A program made the position numbers and the translations under genes. DNA of 64,000 nt from Octopus vulgaris (Eukaryota). The notes beneath the pieces were generated by a model, which ran no database searches, had not been told where the DNA came from, and was given only the letters and a program-made list of their open reading frames with translations. Where the stretch lies: assembly GCA_951406725.2 (NCBI GenBank), contig OX597817.1, positions 98,580,001 through 98,644,000 on the forward strand, read 5' to 3'. Shown here in pieces: positions 104-50,196 of the stretch (its first letter is position 1; the number at the start of each line of letters is the position of its first letter).

Positions 104-300
104 ATACACACACACACACACACAAGAGTTACGGAATGGAGTAGGAGAAATCTTGGCTATATATGCTTCATAGTGAGTGGAACCTCAGAAGTGGTAAAAG
201 TGAGGCCAAGGATGTCTTGATTAGATTGAAAGTTACATTGTCGCAAGGAGGTACATGTTGATGCAAAGAAGATTCAATCACAATGTATGGAGGGCACAGT

Positions 301-664: not shown

Positions 665-1732
665 TACAGTTTCGTCCACCAAAATGTCGTCAATGTAGGA
701 GCTGGTGGCCTTTCTAATCTTGCCGTCTTTCCCTAGGACAGACCTAAGCACTGCCGCCATGATCTTCGGAGCGGAATTCAGCCCGAAACCCAGCCTGGTT
801 AGACAGTACGTCCGGCCCTTGTACCGCACCAGCTGACATCGCCACAGTTTGTCGCTCACATGGAGCTGCAAGTATGCCGATCTCAAGTCGACAATCGCCG
901 CTGCCTCAGTCGACTGTCTCCACTTACGTAATGCCTCACCACAAACGTCTGTCGCCTCACCTCCCGTGTGACACGATATGTGCTGGTTTAGCTTCCTGAA
1001 GTCCAGCACCGGTCTGACTTTTCCCTTCGTAGGCTGCACCACCGCCATCAGGGGTAGCACTCCGCCCACTACCTCCTCCTTCCAAGGGACAAGGACCCCT
1101 TCCTCGATCCACCTCTCCACCTAGTCTTCAAACTCGACCCTGGCGTGGCCTTTCAGGGTATGCTGGTAACAGCTCACCCTGTTCTCCAGCATCGGGGGCT
1201 CGTCCTTCCATCGCCACTCTATCGTCCACCGCTGACCATCGAATGCCGCCTGAAAGTCTTTGTCCTCGATGGTGTAAGCAGTGCAGTCCCTCACGGAGCT
1301 CTGCTCTCTCTGGCGATCCTGACTCGCAGTGCACGACGTCCCCACACTTCCGAACGTGACCTCATTTCCCACAACACTGACGCCACCGAGGCAGTTGATG
1401 GCGTCCATCCCCATCACCACATCAACTCCATCTATCACGCGTTCAGCCACAATTGCCTGCAGCCTTAGCGTCGCGCTGCGCACCACTATCTCTACCTTGC
1501 TGCTGCCTCTGCAACGGATTTCGCTGCCGTCGACCGCCCGGACACTAGTCACCCTGTTCCATTCCTTCGTCACCCTCGAAGTCACCAGGGTGGTCGTACA
1601 GCCCGTATCCACAAGGGCCTTGAACGTCTCCCCCTCGGCCTCCACGTCAATCAATGGCACCATCTCCAATAGTGCCTCTACTCGTTTGAGGGGAAAGTTC
1701 GAGAGGCAGCAACTTCCCCGCAGTCGTTTCCC
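665..1732 (-). pseudogene. pol: pol 5' part: aspartic protease + reverse transcriptase, truncated just after YIDD
   Basis: ALVDTGC protease motif; RT motifs VLDFRKLN, VDLRSAYLQ, RLGFGLNSAP, SYIDDILV. One in-frame TAG at 1121-1123. Confidence 0.92.
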
Positions 1733-2442
1733 TGGCCGCAATCACGGGCAATGTGCCCTGTCTGCCTGCATCGATAGCAAACGGGCCCCGGCTGCGTACA
1801 GTCCCGCGCCATGTGCGGTCCCTGGCATCTAAAACACCGTCCTGAGAACGGCCGCTCTCGTTGCACGGTGAGCTTCTGTACCTCTTTCTCGGGACGTCAT
1901 CCGTCTTTACGCGCCTCCGTCACCGCCATCGCTATCGCCTTCCACCCAGAGTGTCTCGTCAATGCGCGAGCCTGAGCTACAAGTTCACTCAATGGCATCT
2001 TTTTAACCCCGAGCAGTCGTTGTAGGTGAATCCCTACATCGTCGGGGAACCCATTCACGAACGCCAGTCGGGCTGCTCTCTCCAGTCCTTCTCCGGCAAA
2101 CCCGGCCAGAGTCGCTAGCCTTCTAGCTTCTGATGCATAGTCGTCCACGTGGCCTCCCGTCCACCTGATTGCACCTAGCTTAGCGAAAGCTGTGTACTCG
2201 CATTCCGTGTATGCGTCACACAAGCGTCGCTCTATATTCTCATCGCTGAGCCGTTCCTCTTCATCCATCTCCAGGTAGAGCGACAACGCGCTCCCTTCCA
2301 AATACAGCGCCATAAGACTCGCCACATCGCTTATGCCCTGCAGTCTCGCCACCAGCCTGATTTTGCGAATCCAGGCCACTACATTGCCTTCGCCGTTAAA
2401 AGGTCTGACGACGTCACTGGCGATCCTAATTTTTGCAGACAT
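1678..2442 (-). pseudogene. gag: gag with two zinc knuckles
   Basis: ATG at 2442 (MSAKIRIASD...); capsid-like YLEGSAL and FVNGFP; knuckles CFRCQGPHMARDC and CYRCRQTGHIARDC. One in-frame TGA at 1897-1899. Confidence 0.9.
1726..1732 (-). promoter_or_regulatory. -1 ribosomal frameshift slippery heptamer G GGA AAC (gag/pol)
   Basis: The gag frame reads caG GGA AAC (Q-G-N); a -1 shift gives GKRLRGS..., which is the protease ORF frame. Canonical X XXY YYZ pattern. Confidence 0.8.
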
Positions 2443-2499
2443 CGTGTTGAAAAAAAAATGTGAATGTTTACGAACAGCCGAAATAGCTTGTAGTGACTG

Positions 2500-3927
2500 C
2501 CCAAGACGAAATGCGGGACCGTCTGGTGTGATGCTAGCAGTATAGCGATAGGGGTGGTGTTGGCAATCGAAGGCACTGCGGTGGAGGACGCGGCCTGGCT
2601 TCGGAAAGCAGATGATTTCAACCACATCAATGTCGCCGAATTAGACACGCTGCTGAAAGGGGTGAACTTGGCCTTGAAATGGGGGCTGCGCACGATTGAA
2701 ATGCGGACGGATTCGGCCACTGTGCTTGGCTGGGTAGGATCGGTGATCACCGGTGACAGGAGAGTGCGGACGAAAGGTGCTGCGGAGATGTTAGTGAAGC
2801 GCCGTCTAGGAGTTCTAGGTGAATTGATCGCCGAATTCGGACTGAAGCTGAACATGGTTTTCGTGCCTTCGGAGAAAAACAGGGCGGACGTACTGACCAG
2901 GGTGAAAAGGGCGTGGTTGGAAGAACCGGAGGAGGCCCGGAAAGGGATAGCTGTGGCGTGTCGGTTGGATGACTCTGAACTGAAGAAACTGCACGCTATG
3001 CATCACCTGGGTGTGGGCAGGACCCTGTATCTGGCAAAAAAAATTGATGCTGACGTCACTAGGAGAAGCGTCCGGAAGGTGGTCGGGAGCTGCAACAGGT
3101 GTCAGTCCATCGACCCTGCTCCGTGTGGGCATGAACAAGGAAGCCTTTCCGTGGAGCAGAACTGGAAAAGGCTAGCTGTGGATGTGACACACTACCGTCA
3201 GCAAATGTACCTCTCCATGGTCGACTGTGGGCCGGGCCGGCTGGCCATTTAGAGGGAGTTGAGATCGGGCATTGCTGACGAGATCGTACAGATCCTGAAC
3301 AGGATATTTTTAGAGAGAGGTCCCGTGGAAGAACTACTGATGGACAACGGGGCGGCGTTTCGTTCGGAAGCATTGAGGGTTATGCTTGATCGGTGGAACG
3401 TGCGACGCTTGTTCAGAGCAGCGTATAGGCCGGGCGGTAACGGGATCGTGGAGAGGCACCATCGGACAGTCAAGGCCATAGCGGAAAGAGGGTACATTTC
3501 GCCGCTTGAAGCAGTTTTTTGGTACAACTTGTCTCCCCGATCCGGACAAGCTGAGGAATCTGTGCCGCAGAGAGCTGTGTTCAAATATGAATGGAGGCAC
3601 CCGAGCAAAGCGCTGGAGGGTCACGAGGAAGAGAAGGGACCCGTTCGCGTGAAAATAGGGGAGGAAGTCTGGGTCAAGCCACCAAAGGCGTGCTGTACGT
3701 CTCAATGGAGCAGAGGAACGGTGACGGCGATCAATTCCAGAAGCAACATATCCGTAGATGGAACACCACGACACGTCTTGGACCTTCGCAGGATTGTTGC
3801 TTCGACGGACGATGATTCTGGAGAGGGGGAGAATGAGGAGCCCAGCTTGAGAAGATCTCGACGAGCAAGGCGCTCTCCCGGTTGGATGGTAGACTACAAC
3901 ATGGAGCGGAGAGATTGTGATCTTTAA
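2500..3927 (+). pseudogene. pol: pol 3' part: RNase H + integrase (HHCC, DDE)
   Basis: VWCDASS...HINVAELD...RTDS...NRADVLTR (RNase H); HAMHHLG...CNRC; LAVDVT, LMDNG, GNGIVERHHRT (integrase). In-frame TAG at 3250-3252, likely from TGG. Confidence 0.92.
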
Positions 3928-43048: not shown

Positions 43049-46000
43049 TGTCATAGTTAAATAATAATTAAAGGAAAAGAGCAGAGTTATGTCCCCTCAT
43101 TCTGTTGTAGGTAGTTGGTGCTTTGAGAGCACTGTACTCCCAACAGTCTTTGCGACATAGCATTTCTACTGGAAAGATATACAAACTCAAGACGGACATT
43201 TAGTCTCTCTTATCTTATTTGGTGCAACTCTCATTGGACTGAGCTCTTGACTCCTGGCTCTCAGAGAGGTTGGCTTGCTTTATTCTCAGCCATTACAGTT
43301 ACCTCATTATGTAGCTGGTGCATTCCTTACTCTCTTCTGTTCCAGCATGAATCACATAAGATGAACCTTTAACCATTAATGCTAACTGGCTTATTCTCCA
43401 ACCACCTACTGACCAACTAATTTTCACTAGCTATAAAACAACCACATTTGTACACCTTTTACTATTTCACATGCACTTTTTGTAAAAGCACAGTTATATA
43501 AAAACTTGTTAACTAAACTTTGACAGACTGTTATTTGTCAGGCCAATGTATACACAGCTTAATATAACACAAACAACAAAACTGGATTCATGTTTGACTC
43601 TTCACTAAAATGGTGACGCCGAAAGAAGAAAAAATTGTTTTTATGCGTCAAGTCAACGTTTTCCTGTCTCTTCTTACCCTACATCTTTTCAGTCAGTTTA
43701 CCTAACAACTTAAGTGGACAGCAAACGAAGTTATATAGTTGTGAGTTATTTTTTCAACTTTTGAATGGTATTGTCTTCTTCGTCTTCTCACGGGGGTGAT
43801 GTGACAGCATCACTGACTCCAGCAACCAAGTATAGTGAAGTTCTTCCTTGCTGCTACTGCTACAACCATCATGTTTAGTACTCTATAGCTTCGCTTTCCT
43901 CCTCTTCACCTAGCCTCGCTTCTTCAATTTCCTGGGTAGTCTATTGATTTTCATGCTGATATTTTTCTATTCGTCTACATTTCTTGACAGCAACAGGCAG
44001 CATTCTTCCTTCCCGCTCTTTTGTGGAGATGTTCCTTTGTACTTCGCGCAAGAAGAGGCATACTTTGTTGTGAATAATATCCAGTCAGCTCAACAGCAAC
44101 TTGACATTTTGCTTAGTGTGTTTCCTTCTGCCTTGGCTACTCATTTGAAAGATTTGATAACAGATATGCCAAAGGATGCAACTTATTCCTCAATCAAACA
44201 AGAGGTTTTTTTGCAGGACATCCTTTTCAGTTGAGCGCCGCTTCCAGACCCTTGTAAACTATGAGCATTTGGGTGACAGAAAGCTCACAGAATTTCCTTG
44301 TCGCATTCGCAACCTCAGACGTGTCTCCTGAAGACAGCTCTCTCCTAAAACAGTTATTCTTCTTATGTTTCCTGCAGAATGTCCAGGCCATCTTAGCTCC
44401 TATGGTTGAAGTCAGCACTGCAGATCAGATAGCCACTTCAGCTGACAAAATAATGGAATTTTCTGGAAACTAAACCTCTTCCACTGAAGTCATTTCTGCA
44501 TTGTCTAATATAGTTACTGTTGATCTTATTTCTAATCATGCATGCGACTATGGAAGCAATTCAGCAACTTACGAGACAGATTGAAAAGATGTGTGTACCT
44601 CGAGAGTTCTGGTGTCATATCCGTTCATTCAGTCGTCATTGTTATTCCTCTCCTTCTTCGTCAAGGACTGTATACTGGTATCATGCACATTTTGACACAA
44701 AAGCACACAAGTGTGTGTCACCATGTTCATCCTCAAGTCAAGAAATCTAGCTAGGGAGACACTGAGCATGTCAGCAGCTCCCACTACGTCAGCCCCTAAT
44801 CATGCATTTTTTTGTGCTGGACCCCAACTTGCATAAGAATTTTATGGTTGACACTGGTACTTCATGTAGCATCTGGCCGGTAAAGTTTGTAACAGATAAG
44901 TCTGTTCTCTCTCGAATTTCTCAGCAAGTTGTCAACAATTCTTCTATTGACACATTTGGGCAGATATCTCTCTCCTTGGATAGATGTTTTGTGATTGCTG
45001 ATCTACCCTATCCTAATCTCTGGGCAGATTTCTTCCACCACTTCTCACTGTTGATGGATGTTCACCAACAGCATTTGTTGGATAGCCTAATGGAGTTATC
45101 AGTTCCTGGTTGTCCAGCATTTGCTCTTGTTGTAAGCCTGGTACTTTTTAGTGTTGTATCTGGTGATACCTACCATTCACTTCTTGACTCTTTCCTGGAG
45201 CTTACCAATTTAACTTTCCCAGTCACTGATCCTGTTCATTCTATGAGGCATCTTATCAACACCAATGGTTCACCAGTGTTTGCTTATCCCCGCCATCTTC
45301 CTCCTGATAAACTCAAGGCTGCAAAAGCAGAATTCAACCACATGCTCCAGTTGGGGCTTATTCATCCTTCTTTGGTTTGCAAAGAAGCTATGGATTTCCA
45401 GCCAGTTGGGGATTATCATAGATTAAATGCTATTACGACCCTGGACAGATACCCTTTTCACACTTGCAGGACTTTTCTTGCTACCTTGCTTGGTAGTACT
45501 GTCTTTATTAAGGTTGATCTTGTCCAGGCATATCACCAGATTCCTTTAAATCCAGACGATATACCAAAGACTGCACTTACTACTCCTTTTAGTTCATTTG
45601 AATTCCTTTCAATATCTTTTGGATTGTGGAATACCACTAGCACCTTTCAAAGGTTTATAGACAAGGTCATTTATGGTCACAACTTCGTCTATGCTTATAC
45701 TGATGATTTATTCATCACAAGTTCTACAAAGGAAGAACATATCCAGCATCTAACACTACTTTTTTCAGCATTTATGTAAATTATCAAGTCAAAATCAACC
45801 CAGCAAAGAGTGTGTTTGGTTCTGCATTGCTGGAATTCTTAGACCATATAATGGAATTCGTCCTCTCCCACAGAAAGTACAAACTATTCAGAAGCTTCCT
45901 TCTCCATCTTCTCTTAAGCAGCTTCACCATTTCCTCAGTTTGGCGAATTTTTATCATGGATTCATTCCAAATTGTGTGGAGAAATTGAGTTCACTTACAG

Positions 46001-46350
46001 CATTGCTGAAAGATTGGAAGAAGAGGAATGAAGTTATCACCCTTTCCCCATCACTTGTTGCTGATTTTCAAACTGTTAAACAAGCCCTGGCTAATGTTTC
46101 AATGTTAGTACACCTAAAATCCAATGCAAAGCTTTTGCTTGTGGTAAATGCATCAGATACAGCTGTGGGTGCCATATTACAGCAAGCTGACCAAGGAATT
46201 CTGCAACTGCTGGCATTTTATTGCCATCATCTCAAGCCTGCTGGGATGCGCTATAGCATGTTTGGAAGAGAATTACTTGCTATTTATTTTGTGGGGAAGC
46301 ATTTTTGTCATTTCCTAGAAGGAAGGGAGTTTATGATATTCACAAACCAT
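43049..46350 (+). mobile_element. CsRn1-like gypsy relic, 5' half only (LTR, PBS, gag, PR, RT, partial RNase H)
   Basis: TG at 43049; PBS-like TGGTGACGCCGA at 43611 (tRNA-Trp type); CHCC gag motif relic WYHAHFDTKAHKCVSPC; VDTG, DYHRLN, DLVQAYHQIP, YTDD, RELLAIY. Confidence 0.88.
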
Positions 46351-47500
46351 GCCAATAACAAAAACACTGTACACCCACAAAATTGCAGACCAATAACATG
46401 CTTATCAACATCCTACAAAACCCTAACATCAGTCATCTATAACTGGCCTATAAAGCACCTAGAAAACTACAATGGTGCTGGAGAGGGATGTATGGCTGTA
46501 AGGAGCAACTTCTAGTAAACTGAGCCATTACATAGGACTGTAAGAGGAGAAAGACAAACCTGAACATGACTTGGATTGATTGCCAGAAATCATTTGACAG
46601 TGTTCCAAACTCATGGATGCTGGAATCTCTCCACACAAATAAGTTAACTCCACCATTACTAAAGTATATTAAATATGGCAAACTGGAAAACCAGTATAAC
46701 ATTAAAAAATAACTCACAAGTTATTAAAACCTACCCTATACCCATAAGAAGGAGGATTTTCCTGGGAGATTCAGTTACCCCTGCTTTTCTGCCTTTCTCT
46801 GATTCTGCTAACAAACTTGTTAGCAGAACCATGGGTTATAGGTGTTATGGACAAAAAATAAGCCATCTCCTGTACATGGATGACATAAAACTTTTTGCTA
46901 AAAGCACCACAGAACAGAGAAACCTTATCAAAATTGTCCAGAGTCTCAGCAATGACATTGGAATGACCATGGGGTTGGACAAATTTGCCAGTGTCACACT
47001 GAGAAGAGGCAAATTATTCAGCACTGAAAACACTGCACTCAGCATAAACACAGAAAGTAGATATTTAGACTACAACTGCTTGTACAAATATCTAGGAACA
47101 GATGAAACAGCTACAATACAACACACAGAATGAAAGAAAAAATTAGGAGGGGGTATTACAAAAGAGTTAGACTAATATTAAGCACTGAACTTAATGCTAA
47201 AAATAAGATAATAGAGATAAACACACTAGCCATACCTATTATAAATTACAGCATTAACATAATAAACTGGAAGATCAGTGAATCGAGAAACCTAGATAGA
47301 AGAATCAGAAAACTACTAACAGTGTTACAGTTCTGTATTTGAGAGATGAGGAATTATGTACATTATTTACATTTGATGGATATTTGCTAGGACATAATAA
47401 CCTCCTAAGCAGACCTAGTGCAGATATGAGCAGCATATGGGAACTAGTATTAAGGAAGGATAGGAAAATATTAGATTTATAAGCCTCCTTAATTGCCCAC

Positions 47501-47572
47501 GGGCATATGTCATAGTGGTTAAGAGCATAGGCTACTAACCCCAAGATTCCGAGTTTGATTCCAGGCAGTGAC
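47501..47572 (+). ncRNA. tRNA-like (Pol III A/B box) segment, not an intact tRNA gene
   Basis: catagtggttaagagc (A box/D arm), gg-ctactaa-cc (anticodon-arm-like), gagtttgattcc (B box/T loop); acceptor stem poor. Confidence 0.7.
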
Positions 47573-47579
47573 TTGAATG

Positions 47580-47645
<66 letters not shown>

Positions 47646-47696
47646 GTATTGTGAAAATACCTTAGGAATGAGAACCCTCATTTGAAATTCCCCAGG

Positions 47697-47737
47697 ACAC
47701 CTGATGAAGGCTGGAGAGTACATCAGCCGAAATGTGT
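47697..47737 (+). ncRNA. Hammerhead ribozyme core, helix III/cleavage site missing in this copy
   Basis: acac-CTGATGA(47701-07)-a-ggctg...cagcc-GAAA(47729-32)-t-gtgt; helix I acac/gtgt and helix II ggctg/cagcc. Confidence 0.65.
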
Positions 47738-50196
47738 TAACAACAAACAAGATGAGGACAAATATCCCTCAAATGTAAATAATGTACTAACAGTGTGCTG
47801 AAGTCATCACCCCAAAGCAGACACAGACAGAATATATCTATCCTGCTCAGAAGGAGGCTATGGCCTGATATAGATAGAGACTTACAGTAAAATCACAACA
47901 GTTGGACTAGCAAAATACTTAGAAACAAAGAGTGGAAGACTACTGCATGTAGTAAAGCAACATGAGAAAAAGAAAATGCTTTTCTCTATACACAAGGAGG
48001 CGACAAAATACAGAAACAAACTACACTTGACCTCAGATGTCAACATAGCATAATGGTCAAAGAGACAAAAAACATGAAAACTGAATTACAAAAGATACTG
48101 AACAAGAAATGGAGAGAAAAATCACTTCATGGCCAATAACCTGCAAGGTTTGACAGAGAGGAAGTGAGCCTAAATAAAAGCCAACAATGAATCAAAAGCT
48201 CTGGACTAAAAGCCAAAACGGAAGGGCTGATTCTTGCTGCACAAGACCAATGCCTGACTACAAAATTATATAAACAAAATAATGAAAACAGGCCTCAATG
48301 TGCAACTAGTATAATGAGGCAGTTGACTACGTCATCTCAGGCTGCTTAGTCCTTACCAAGTCTGAATATATATACAGACACAACAAAGTAAGCAGTTATA
48401 TCCATTGGACAATATGCCAACATCAAAACTGATAACAGCTGGCATAAGCATGTGCCAAGCAAGGTACAAGACAATGACCAGACCACAATCATCTGGGATA
48501 TGCCTGTTCAAACCAACAAAGATATAAAAGCTAATCACCCAGACATAATAGTCAAGGATTGGGGAAAAAAACACCAGCTTACTGATAGATATTGCAGTCC
48601 CTTCTGATCAAAATATTGTCAAAAAAGAAGCGGAAAAATTGTCAAAGTACAAAGACCTCAAAATTGAAGTATTCAAAATGTGGAGCATGAAGGTAAAAAC
48701 AATACCAATAATAATTGGCACAATGGGCATGATAAAAAACATATGAACAAAAACGTAGAGCCTATACCTGGATCCTCAACACTACACACTGTCCCAAAAA
48801 TAGTCCTGCTAGGAACAGCCCACATCCTATGCAAGACACTATAAAGCAAATAATACAACCAAAACAAAACAACCCACAAATACAAGACAGACTTTTACCC
48901 AGTGAAATAAACTTCCACTAGCAAGCCAGAAAATTAAAGCATTTCACACTCAACACACAATACAAGCTGTAACACAACAAGACTGCACCACACCTCAAGA
49001 GAAAAAACAAAAACAAAAAGACTAACACAATACAGTATTGGGAAGAGTCTGCACACTCCCAACAGCAGAAAAGAACATACAATGCTATACACATCCCAGC
49101 AACACAAAGATGTAGTAGATGATGCAGTAGAAATTTGCCTCAATCTTGCCAAATATTGAACGGTTATATAATAATAATAATCATTTGCAGTGTTTACCTC
49201 CACTATTCATATTAGCATGAATATGGCTTTTATCAATGTGAATATGTTATATTGAATACTATATAAAAATGATCAGAGTAAGAAGGGGAAATAATATCAT
49301 GATGATGCTGAATCTCAAGAATTCCATGCAATTAACAAAGAAAAAGCAGTCTGATGAAGCTTATAGATGCAGAAGCATGTATTCACAATCACCCTGTTGT
49401 CTCCAGAGAAAAACAGTGTTTTGTAAATTCTAAAGAATTCTTGATTCTTGAGATCATGTCCCCTTCTAATTCTGAGTCAGTTACAACTGCTGTCAGGCAT
49501 TTCTTTGTTATTTGTAGAAGATAATTTCAATAAATCAAGAATTAATAATATGTGATATTTAATACACCTTTATATATATTACTGTTATATGCTCATTCTA
49601 CTTGTAAATACTCAACCATAAAGTATTGTCAGTTAGGCAAGCTGAAGTATGCAGATTAATGTTAATTGTCTATGGGTACATAAAAATGGTTAAAGCAAGA
49701 TTTGAACTGATGAACATGAGTTTAGTAATCAACCTTCTTAAACTTAAGATTACTATCATTATTACAAATCAAAATATATATCATTCTATATATGCTGATC
49801 CAACCAACTCAAATTCTACAGCCCACTAAGTCTTTCCATAGATTTTCTATTCATAATTAAAGTGATATCATAGATGAAATATGGTAGTGTAGAAATTGTA
49901 CAGCTTTGTGAGTTGTGAGATCATATTTGTTGCTGGTGAATCACTGGTCCTGAGTAAGAGACTAAATTCTATATGCTTCCACTTATATAATTTCTAGATC
50001 ACTTGAGAATGTAATGTGATATACTGATGTCTTATCCACAGGAACATTATTTATTTATTTGACACTTCAGTGTCTATATAAAGCAATAGTATTATGAGTT
50101 TTTGTGGTCCATTGTAATATTTGATTTTTGTTTTTAAGCAATTGAAAAACAACTATTATTTTTTACATGTCATGCAAAACAAAATTTAATACTCAC

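Follow-up and report, generated by a model that had tools for sequence, protein, structure and literature searches.

A tRNA-derived head in the terminal repeat of a coding Penelope-like element of Octopus vulgaris as a candidate RNA polymerase III start for SINE-like copies

The insertion and its parent element

A 64,000-nt stretch of Octopus vulgaris DNA (contig OX597817.1, positions 98,580,001 to 98,644,000; hereafter the window) contains at 47314..47796 an insertion that is a 5'-truncated, dead copy of a high-copy Penelope-like element (PLE) of the Penelope/Poseidon type, in whose pseudo-long terminal repeat (pLTR) a tRNA-derived segment, the head, lies upstream of a hammerhead ribozyme. 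A first-pass annotation, made from the letters of the window, had described this arrangement, together with the end of an open reading frame (ORF) and a target-site duplication (TSD), and had suggested that the head either makes a short interspersed element (SINE) dependent on the PLE or serves as an RNase P/Z signal. The features of the insertion are as follows, the head being numbered from U1, its first base.

47314..47325, no strand: left TSD, 12 bp, from a direct-repeat match and the target-site reading
47326..47386, minus strand: inverted arm, equivalent to nt +95 to +156 of the element's ORF (terminus plus tail)
47385..47482, plus strand: end of the 5'-truncated PLE ORF, with the last 31 codons of a GIY-YIG-type endonuclease (47387-47479) and the stop codon (47480-47482)
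47483..47494, plus strand: short 3' untranslated region (UTR), with 11 nt deleted relative to the family
47495..47572, plus strand: tRNA-derived head, with a 6-nt leader (U1 at 47495) and the tRNA +1 equivalent at 47501
47508-47518 and 47553-47562, plus strand: A box and B box of the head
47576..47645, plus strand: (AAT)n tract, variable in length and found across the whole family
47668..47787, plus strand: start of the next unit's ORF, from the ATG at 47668 to the terminus at ORF nt +124
47696..47738, plus strand: minimal type I hammerhead, with the helix I 5' strand (47696-47700), core CUGAUGA (47701-47707), an extra A, helix II (47709-47728) and GAAA (47729-47732)
47785..47796, no strand: right TSD, 12 bp, its first three bases common with the element end

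Once the insert and one repeat are removed, the ORF of the host, which resembles a long interspersed element (LINE), reads in one frame with one in-frame stop, and the 12-bp repeat is therefore a true target-site duplication, as had been annotated. The other annotated parts were likewise located, namely the inverted terminus with a tail of ~32 nt (47326-47386), the 31 codons and stop, the tRNA-like block (47501-47572), the (AAT)n tract and the hammerhead core; the head begins 18 nt after the stop here and 29 nt after it in the family, the difference being the 11-nt deletion. The peptide, which had been recognised as a PLE GIY-YIG C-terminus, aligns with the C-terminal end of P0003, a full-length relative, with 12/24 positions identical (E 2e-6). 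The ORF remnant is joined to the inverted arm via a short microhomology, and since the copy begins at U-124, i.e. 124 nt upstream of the head, it derives from a long, ORF-bearing RNA. The inverted arm appears to read from the second of two putative reverse-transcription starts, the terminus at ORF nt +124 probably being the first. The copy's head has one A-box substitution and CpG-type decay in both boxes, the ORF start of the next unit is disrupted by a stop and a 1-nt deletion, and in the hammerhead a 3-nt deletion together with CpG decay has erased the palindromic ACGU and the cleavage triplet.

Family size was estimated from exact matches in the 2.8-Gb, 227-contig assembly, in which reversed control words gave no match. 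There were 7,057 matches to a 31-mer at the terminus, 3,185 to a 34-mer with 30 fixed letters from the head's 3' half, 1,062 to a CpG-rich 26-mer at the head start and 532 to a stop/UTR 31-mer just upstream of the head, i.e. a drop from 3,185 to 532 across the head. Extension of copies upstream yielded reverse transcriptase (RT) and endonuclease sequence, and the autonomous unit was taken as the column majority over long copies, with coverage of at least 18 at each ORF position and a mean identity of ORF segments to the majority of 91% (range 85-95%). This majority sequence has a single 823-codon frame in a unit of ~2.6 kb, in the order head, (AAT)n, ATG, RT and endonuclease frame, stop, short UTR and next head, so that the head and (AAT)n tract serve one unit as its 3' UTR and the following unit as its 5' leader. 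In the family leader, an ATG overlapping the A box (window 47507-47515) opens a two-codon upstream ORF (uORF), with the main ATG following ~110 nt later. Among the 150 best RT matches, the longest open frame in a natural copy has 569 codons, for which reason the family looks inactive.

The natural 569-aa frame matches RVT_1 slightly below the curated cut-off, and the element's RT gives weak matches to telomerase RT structures. Pfam GIY-YIG gave no match on the element's endonuclease stretch, though it matched relative P0069, and the motif was identified by eye: the C-terminal 110 aa and the natural frames have CxC between the GIY- and YIG-like triplets, followed by two histidines, and their linker is free of cysteine clusters and not of the zinc-finger type (CX2-5CxxC). 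In the Penelope/Poseidon pattern, GIY and YIG enclose the two cysteines of a CCHH motif, and the linker is without CX2-5CxxC (Craig et al., PMC8557442, in part). The pLTR with an inverted, 5'-truncated arm and a tail of 30-40 nt is that of a PLE. None of the 2,735 relatives at E 1e-30 or better (7,990 scored) carries a PLE name, and the clade label follows motifs and architecture, by which the element is classed as an endonuclease-bearing (EN+) PLE of Penelope/Poseidon type.

A property overlooked in the first-pass annotation is that the hammerhead, terminus and tail are coding, and form the N-terminus of the element's own protein. The ATG (47668) lies 33 nt ahead of the CUGAUGA core, the frame of natural copies passes through the ribozyme and tail into the ORF, the window peptide at the ORF start matches the N-terminus of relative P0003 (11/17, E 0.001), and the first 160 nt of the ORF contain both the hammerhead and two fixed 3' end points. 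The family ribozyme consists of helix I, the core, the extra base, helix II and a palindromic ACGU instead of helix III, and helices I and II form in an intact family copy. The lack of helix III, which had been noted as an oddity of the window copy, is normal for the published minimal type I PLE hammerhead, which has an extra base before helix II and a palindromic 15.2-16.2 and is predicted to act as a dimer (Cervera and de la Pena, PMC4209133); the real defect is the 3-nt, in-frame deletion over the cut site (window 47733-47738). Across 289 pLTR arms, the ACGU-U junction is exact in 95, CpG-decayed in 63 and unclassed in 101, while 30 (of the 188 classed, window copy included) carry the 3-nt deletion. 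Complete hammerheads do exist in the family, the strict whole motif being matched by 27 of the 289 arms. The recurrent deletion could stem either from short-repeat slippage or from an RT jump across cleaved RNA.

The head and the ends of copies

The tRNA-like block belongs to the element as a constant component and is not a nested SINE. Of 27 distinct copies selected for similarity in the RT and for frame length, all 21 that extend to the stop codon continue into the head (one of them only to its fifth base, another with an internal deletion), the remaining six ending before the stop. The head was in turn followed by the hammerhead region in 48 of 55 distinct head-picked copies; the other seven are cut or interrupted and share no alternative tail, and none of them was identified as a donor SINE in which this head precedes a different tail. 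This constancy bears out the linkage of the block with the hammerhead and, in long copies, with an RT and GIY-YIG-type ORF, and agrees with the proposed capture of a tRNA or SINE head by the pLTR. The reading of the block as a one-off SINE nested in the window copy has next to no probability, being refuted by the same 21 of 21 ORF-end copies, by the thousands of copies genome-wide and by the absence of a TSD of its own.

A tRNA origin of the head is suggested by its alignment to the genome's own tRNAs, of which six amino-acid types were sampled: 45/74 positions agree with Arg-TCT (61%), 44/74 with Ala and 43/73 with Arg-TCG (59% each), with z of 6-7.5 against shuffles, set beside a SINEBase criterion of at least 60% over 60 nt. 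Neither Rfam nor ARAGORN called the tRNA block or the ribozyme in the window copy, nor was either called in CpG-intact copies (Rfam tested on one, ARAGORN on six, 0/6). The family's A and B boxes are intact, with 2/7 pairs in the acceptor stem, 3/5 in the T stem and 3/5 in the anticodon stem. Intact boxes with decayed stems are the usual state of a SINE head. The broken cloverleaf stems make RNase P/Z processing unlikely, and that part of the original proposal is not upheld.

In related PLEs, A/B boxes were present within 500 nt past the stop in none of 39 frames, several of which have little flank; the one upstream A/B-box match, at L345, is separated by ~440 nt from an ORF that is truncated, and seems unrelated. 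For organisms other than A and B, the head-ORF junction is suggested by word shares, at least half of the words being present in 15 of 24 runs across organisms A-F. Other SINE-like repeats, at L041, L286 and L326, have heads 66-71% like that of the PLE on a different body and, on that likeness, may be kin of the captured head. The leader (AAT)n tract is itself a landing site, being interrupted at L246 and L260 by 600-700-nt insertions of another repeat that also ends in (AAT)n.

The 5' ends of copies were taken from a sample picked by the terminus motif, and hence neutral to the 5' end, consisting of 96 of the first 100 of the 7,057 matches (89 loci, one contig). Of these loci, 28 stop short of the head and 61 have a head-bearing arm, and the ends of the 61 insertions fall in U-8..U+12 in 37 cases, within the head in 10 and farther upstream in 14, three of the latter, at -11, being fold-back overruns. 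The per-base end rate is 0.059 in U-8..U+12 and 0.003-0.004 on the flanks, an 18.6-fold difference, and eight of the 37 ends fall exactly on tRNA +1. An accumulation of copies starting at the tRNA head is what the internal RNA polymerase III (Pol III) promoter of the first-pass annotation predicts. Of the 40 junctions that lie in U-11..+12, 15 are fold-backs into the head, 13 lead to an inverted arm elsewhere and 12 to flanking DNA or a different repeat, and with 25 of 40 lacking a fold-back the palindrome at the head edge cannot alone explain the peak. Long copies were sampled through 43 matches to the tail-ORF junction, 10 of which have a head-bearing arm upstream, and six of those 10 start at U-2..U7. 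Four further cases (L297, L298, L310 and L322) are compound insertions in which mid-ORF sequence, from the 5' part of the ORF, jumps directly to the head at U1 or U-1, suggesting that RT completed one template and then jumped into ORF RNA.

The 3' ends of arms are bimodal, with 96 at +117..130 and 76 at +148..167 from the ATG (172 of 187 arms, those shorter than 40 nt having been dropped). Hammerhead cleavage was considered as a source of copy ends and rejected, as starts no more than 3 nt from the cut number six among the 187 arms, none of which ends there, and there is no excess. This agrees with PAc, the Anolis element, for which uncleaved RNA is described as the main template (PMC11167929, in part); in the same element, the ORF begins in the hammerhead and reverse transcription starts at two internal sites that set the tail (PMC11167929, in part). 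A small accumulation of 5' ends does occur elsewhere in the ribozyme, at or just before the start of helix II (eight of 96 arms; terminus-picked loci L091-L180), where the two stem strands provide microhomology with the inverted arm.

Copies that start at the head are ~270-320 nt long, interspersed and represented by thousands of matches, in keeping with the size range and the minimum of at least 100 copies given for SINEs by SINEBase (PMC3531059). They do not form a distinct non-autonomous, LINE-copied lineage with a simple-repeat tail at the 3' end: the (AAT)n tract is internal, the 3' ends lie within PLE coding sequence, and the partner is a PLE. A comparison of 64 head-start and 47 ORF-linked arms at 195 variable columns, from which 33 arms starting elsewhere were excluded, gave a best Fisher P value of 0.004, above the corrected threshold, and divergence of 4.1% and 4.9% respectively. 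In the absence of diagnostic differences there is no separate SINE subfamily, contrary to the suggestion of a PLE-dependent SINE family, and the short copies look like progeny of the ORF-linked copies' own source. At the 89 terminus-picked loci the arms are single or inverted, with direct repeats rare and partial. A non-LTR retrozyme was rejected as a candidate, since head-to-tail tandems with complete hammerheads were not found at these 89 loci.

Transcription and rival explanations

If Pol III reads through the whole unit, the sense strand should be free of runs of four T (T4), and this prediction was set before counting. The 2.6-kb majority sense strand contains no T4 run, the longest T run being three, against a codon-shuffle expectation of 3.0 (P 0.02-0.03), or of 4.6 with free choice of Phe codons (P 0.007). 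Natural copies contain 0.4-0.5 T4 per kb at scattered sites, none of them common to more than ~12% of copies. For comparison, 39 of 80 loci of related PLEs on metagenome contigs passed a 350-codon open-frame filter (41 were dropped); these 39 frames have 377 T4 observed and 338 expected, none of the 38 with an expectation of at least 2 is T4-free, and density is 2.8 per kb in 19 frames of similar T content. T4 and T5 also occur at the expected rate in a second PLE family of the same genome (L273-L282). Runs of four G are likewise absent from the ORF, with an expectation of just 1.05 (P 0.28). Transcription by Pol III is consistent with both the pile-up of copy starts at the head and the missing T4 runs, and the pLTR is a known seat of the Penelope promoter in D. 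virilis (PMC2377424, in part).

The reading we favour, with a probability of about 0.6, is that a Penelope/Poseidon-type element whose RNA starts in the captured tRNA head under Pol III sheds SINE-like copies without a separate SINE lineage. Pol III would start on the tRNA +1 position or a few bases 5' of it and, without a terminator, could read the whole unit and on into the next pLTR. Reverse transcription would then start inside the RNA at ORF nt ~+125 or +157, by analogy with work on the anole Poseidon element; a start at the site nearest the 5' end of the RNA would give the head-to-terminus, SINE-like copies of ~300 nt, and a start at the site in the downstream pLTR would give ORF-bearing truncated copies such as that in the window. 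Most short copies would not self-propagate, because in ending at or before the tail they lack the downstream RT-binding sequence. The arrangement may have originated when a SINE with a tRNA head and (AAT)n, or a tRNA copy, inserted between the stop and start codons of a master element and displaced its Pol II promoter. The protein could come from cap-independent translation of the same RNA, or from a Pol II read-through RNA. A stronger version, that an autonomous coding retrotransposon switched from Pol II to Pol III, had its ORF purged of terminators, makes its 823-aa protein from uncapped RNA and sheds thousands of SINE-like copies through internal priming, is put forward tentatively and seems on balance doubtful; it would offer a snapshot of the birth of a SINE from its own partner.

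Several observations weigh against a Pol III start. The P value of the 5'-end peak (2e-24) is only indicative, because its window was chosen after the arm-level data had been seen, and the sample of 96 among 7,057 matches comes from a single contig. Hairpins do cluster ends, both in the fold-back junctions at the head (15/40) and at helix II (8/96 arms), and of the 10 arms extending beyond the tail, three begin upstream of the head and one inside it. No intact copy from the head to the 3' end was seen: the longest head-start copy, L288, stops at ORF nt ~1,060, where another copy, L248, also ends, and the longest natural open frame falls well short of 823 codons. The T4 signal comes from a single lineage and an A-rich strand, and its P value is moderate. 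A and B boxes indicate but do not prove use of Pol III (PMC3531059), and in the view of Kojima autonomous elements need Pol II, Pol III being weakly processive (PMC10886601, in part). An uncapped RNA with a two-codon uORF in its A box is also a poor mRNA, a point tempered by the ability of type 2 Pol III promoters to drive translated reporters, better once the terminator is removed (PMC8223928). Neutral in this respect are three RNA-seq runs from one study of organism B (~6% of each), with equal depth on the two strands and no start peak. Depth roughly doubles at the head start, where loose ends also lie, a reflection of the boundary in the DNA of copies transcribed passively, and the pattern neither supports nor weakens the promoter claim; no RNA-type record is listed for the stretch.

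The same peak can be read without Pol III. An ordinary internal Pol II promoter in the pLTR, overlapping a decayed SINE head, would supply a capped RNA and so resolve translation, and the absence of T4 would then be incidental. Such a promoter, TATA-less and internal, is present in the D. virilis Penelope pLTR (PMC2377424, in part), the 5'-end peak marks an RNA start rather than a polymerase, and the T4 statistic is moderate (P 0.007-0.03). However, the start lies within a few bases of where the tRNA begins, the decayed stems are accompanied by two intact boxes, and 0/38 comparable relatives are T4-free, and we regard this explanation as rather unlikely. The pile-up might instead reflect an RT stall or template switch at the head-edge palindrome, or an RNase P cut at tRNA +1, given the 15 fold-back junctions, the eight of 37 ends exactly at +1 and the similar collection of ends at helix II. 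An RT stall would be expected 3' of a structure and not after it has been read through. With 25 of 40 junctions free of fold-back, two of seven acceptor pairs, no tRNA fold detected by ARAGORN or Rfam, and the missing T4 runs left unexplained, an origin by stalling or processing appears unlikely.

An equally improbable explanation in our estimate accepts Pol III transcription and makes the short head-start copies a true SINE family, with masters of its own, mobilised in trans by the PLE. The short copies far outnumber the ORF-linked ones, their size and number are those of SINEs and their tRNA identity marginally so, and schistosome Sm-alpha provides a precedent (PMC6765202, in part). Against this, no diagnostic column among the 195 survives correction (best P 0.004) and divergence is similar, a test that is blind to SINE masters that have not yet diverged. 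The body of the short copies is also the autonomous element's own coding start, and the PAc template needs ~172 nt of ORF, slightly above what short copies retain (PMC11167929, in part).

Known systems and neighbouring elements

The octopus element resembles PAc of Anolis and Penelope of D. virilis in its single ORF of RT and C-terminal GIY-YIG-type endonuclease, in an ORF start that overlaps the hammerhead, in 3' end points ~32 nt apart that give the tail, and in its inverted 5' arm, variable TSD and promoter position within the pLTR (PMC11167929, PMC2377424, both in part). It differs from both in a pLTR made up mostly of a tRNA-derived A/B-box head and (AAT)n, in 5' ends at that head and in the lack of T4, the Penelope promoter being described as TATA-less, LINE-like and internal (PMC2377424, in part). 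Sm-alpha and Sj-alpha of schistosomes likewise combine a tRNA-derived Pol III promoter, in octopus a candidate one, with a type I hammerhead downstream, at very high copy number (PMC6765202, PMC2770079, both in part). Sm-alpha, however, is non-coding, non-autonomous, derived from tRNA-Gln and often tandem, with a canonical hammerhead (PMC6765202, PMC2770079, both in part), whereas the octopus head sits in a protein-coding autonomous unit with a minimal and coding ribozyme.

Among long terminal repeat (LTR) elements, the TRIMp3 elements Helenus, Ajax and Cassandra have a small-RNA-derived Pol III promoter in the terminal repeat, tRNA-derived in Helenus, for which an origin by SINE insertion into the repeat has been proposed (PMC10886601, in part). 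They are non-autonomous, with autonomous partners expected to use Pol II (PMC10886601, in part), whereas in octopus the coding element itself bears the head. Animal non-LTR retrozymes are also short hammerhead repeats derived from pLTRs and dependent on PLE enzymes (bioRxiv 10.64898/2026.07.22.740005, PMC7761336, both in part); they are head-to-tail tandems with no tRNA head in the parts of the description available (bioRxiv 10.64898/2026.07.22.740005), while the octopus copies are dispersed, single or in inverted pairs. Non-autonomous repeats derived from pLTRs are known in Chlamys as well (PMC8557442, in part). As far as the available portions of these sources describe them, the precedents (Sm-alpha, Helenus, retrozymes and the Chlamys repeats) are all non-coding.

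The first-pass annotation knew of no described example. One exists for a tRNA head with a hammerhead, namely Sm-alpha (PMC6765202, in part), but no coding PLE with such a head was found in the full-text literature (subscription journals, Repbase, Dfam and the octopus Zenodo library lying outside the search). Octopus repeat papers list PLEs and SINEs separately, with no mention of a tRNA-headed PLE in the portions available (PMC13282606, PMC8967140, PMC6962438). Under the standard division, autonomous retrotransposons use Pol II and short parasites Pol III (PMC3531059; PMC10886601, in part). If the favoured Pol III reading is correct, a PLE that encodes its own protein, starts its RNA in a tRNA head and has an ORF free of terminators would break that division, and would provide a natural long Pol III RNA that may be translated and one route from autonomous element to SINE without a separate fusion step. 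The ends of the copies also show, from genomic sequence, how a PLE works in a second animal, with two probable RT starts inside the RNA and no surplus of ends where the hammerhead cuts.

In repeat libraries the short copies may be filed as an unclassified SINE. Ohshima and Okada reportedly described octopus tRNA SINEs in 1994 under names such as OK, OR1 and OR2. OR2 is classed as a CORE SINE (PMC4758252), and the octopus PLE copies are not OR2-like in build, because their PLE coding body leaves no room for a CORE domain. It is possible that the head-bearing copies are the same as OK, OR1 or a repeat-library entry.

The second PLE family, at L273-L282 (e.g. G000:C15:43316700-43323200), is young and possibly still active, with intact frames of 626-1,181 codons from stop to stop. 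Direct repeats of 0.9-1.05 kb are present in two of three copies checked, the sense strand is C/T-rich, and there was no match to the hammerhead pattern searched or to ARAGORN. In the window itself, the host of the insertion (46500-48900) is a decayed LINE with an RT motif (a weak RVT_1 match) and a C-terminal restriction-like endonuclease pattern, which we take to be of the R4/Dong type. Open frames of 206-337 codons at 44766-46512 and 1124-3924 are presumably pieces of LTR-retroelement protease, RT, RNase H and integrase.

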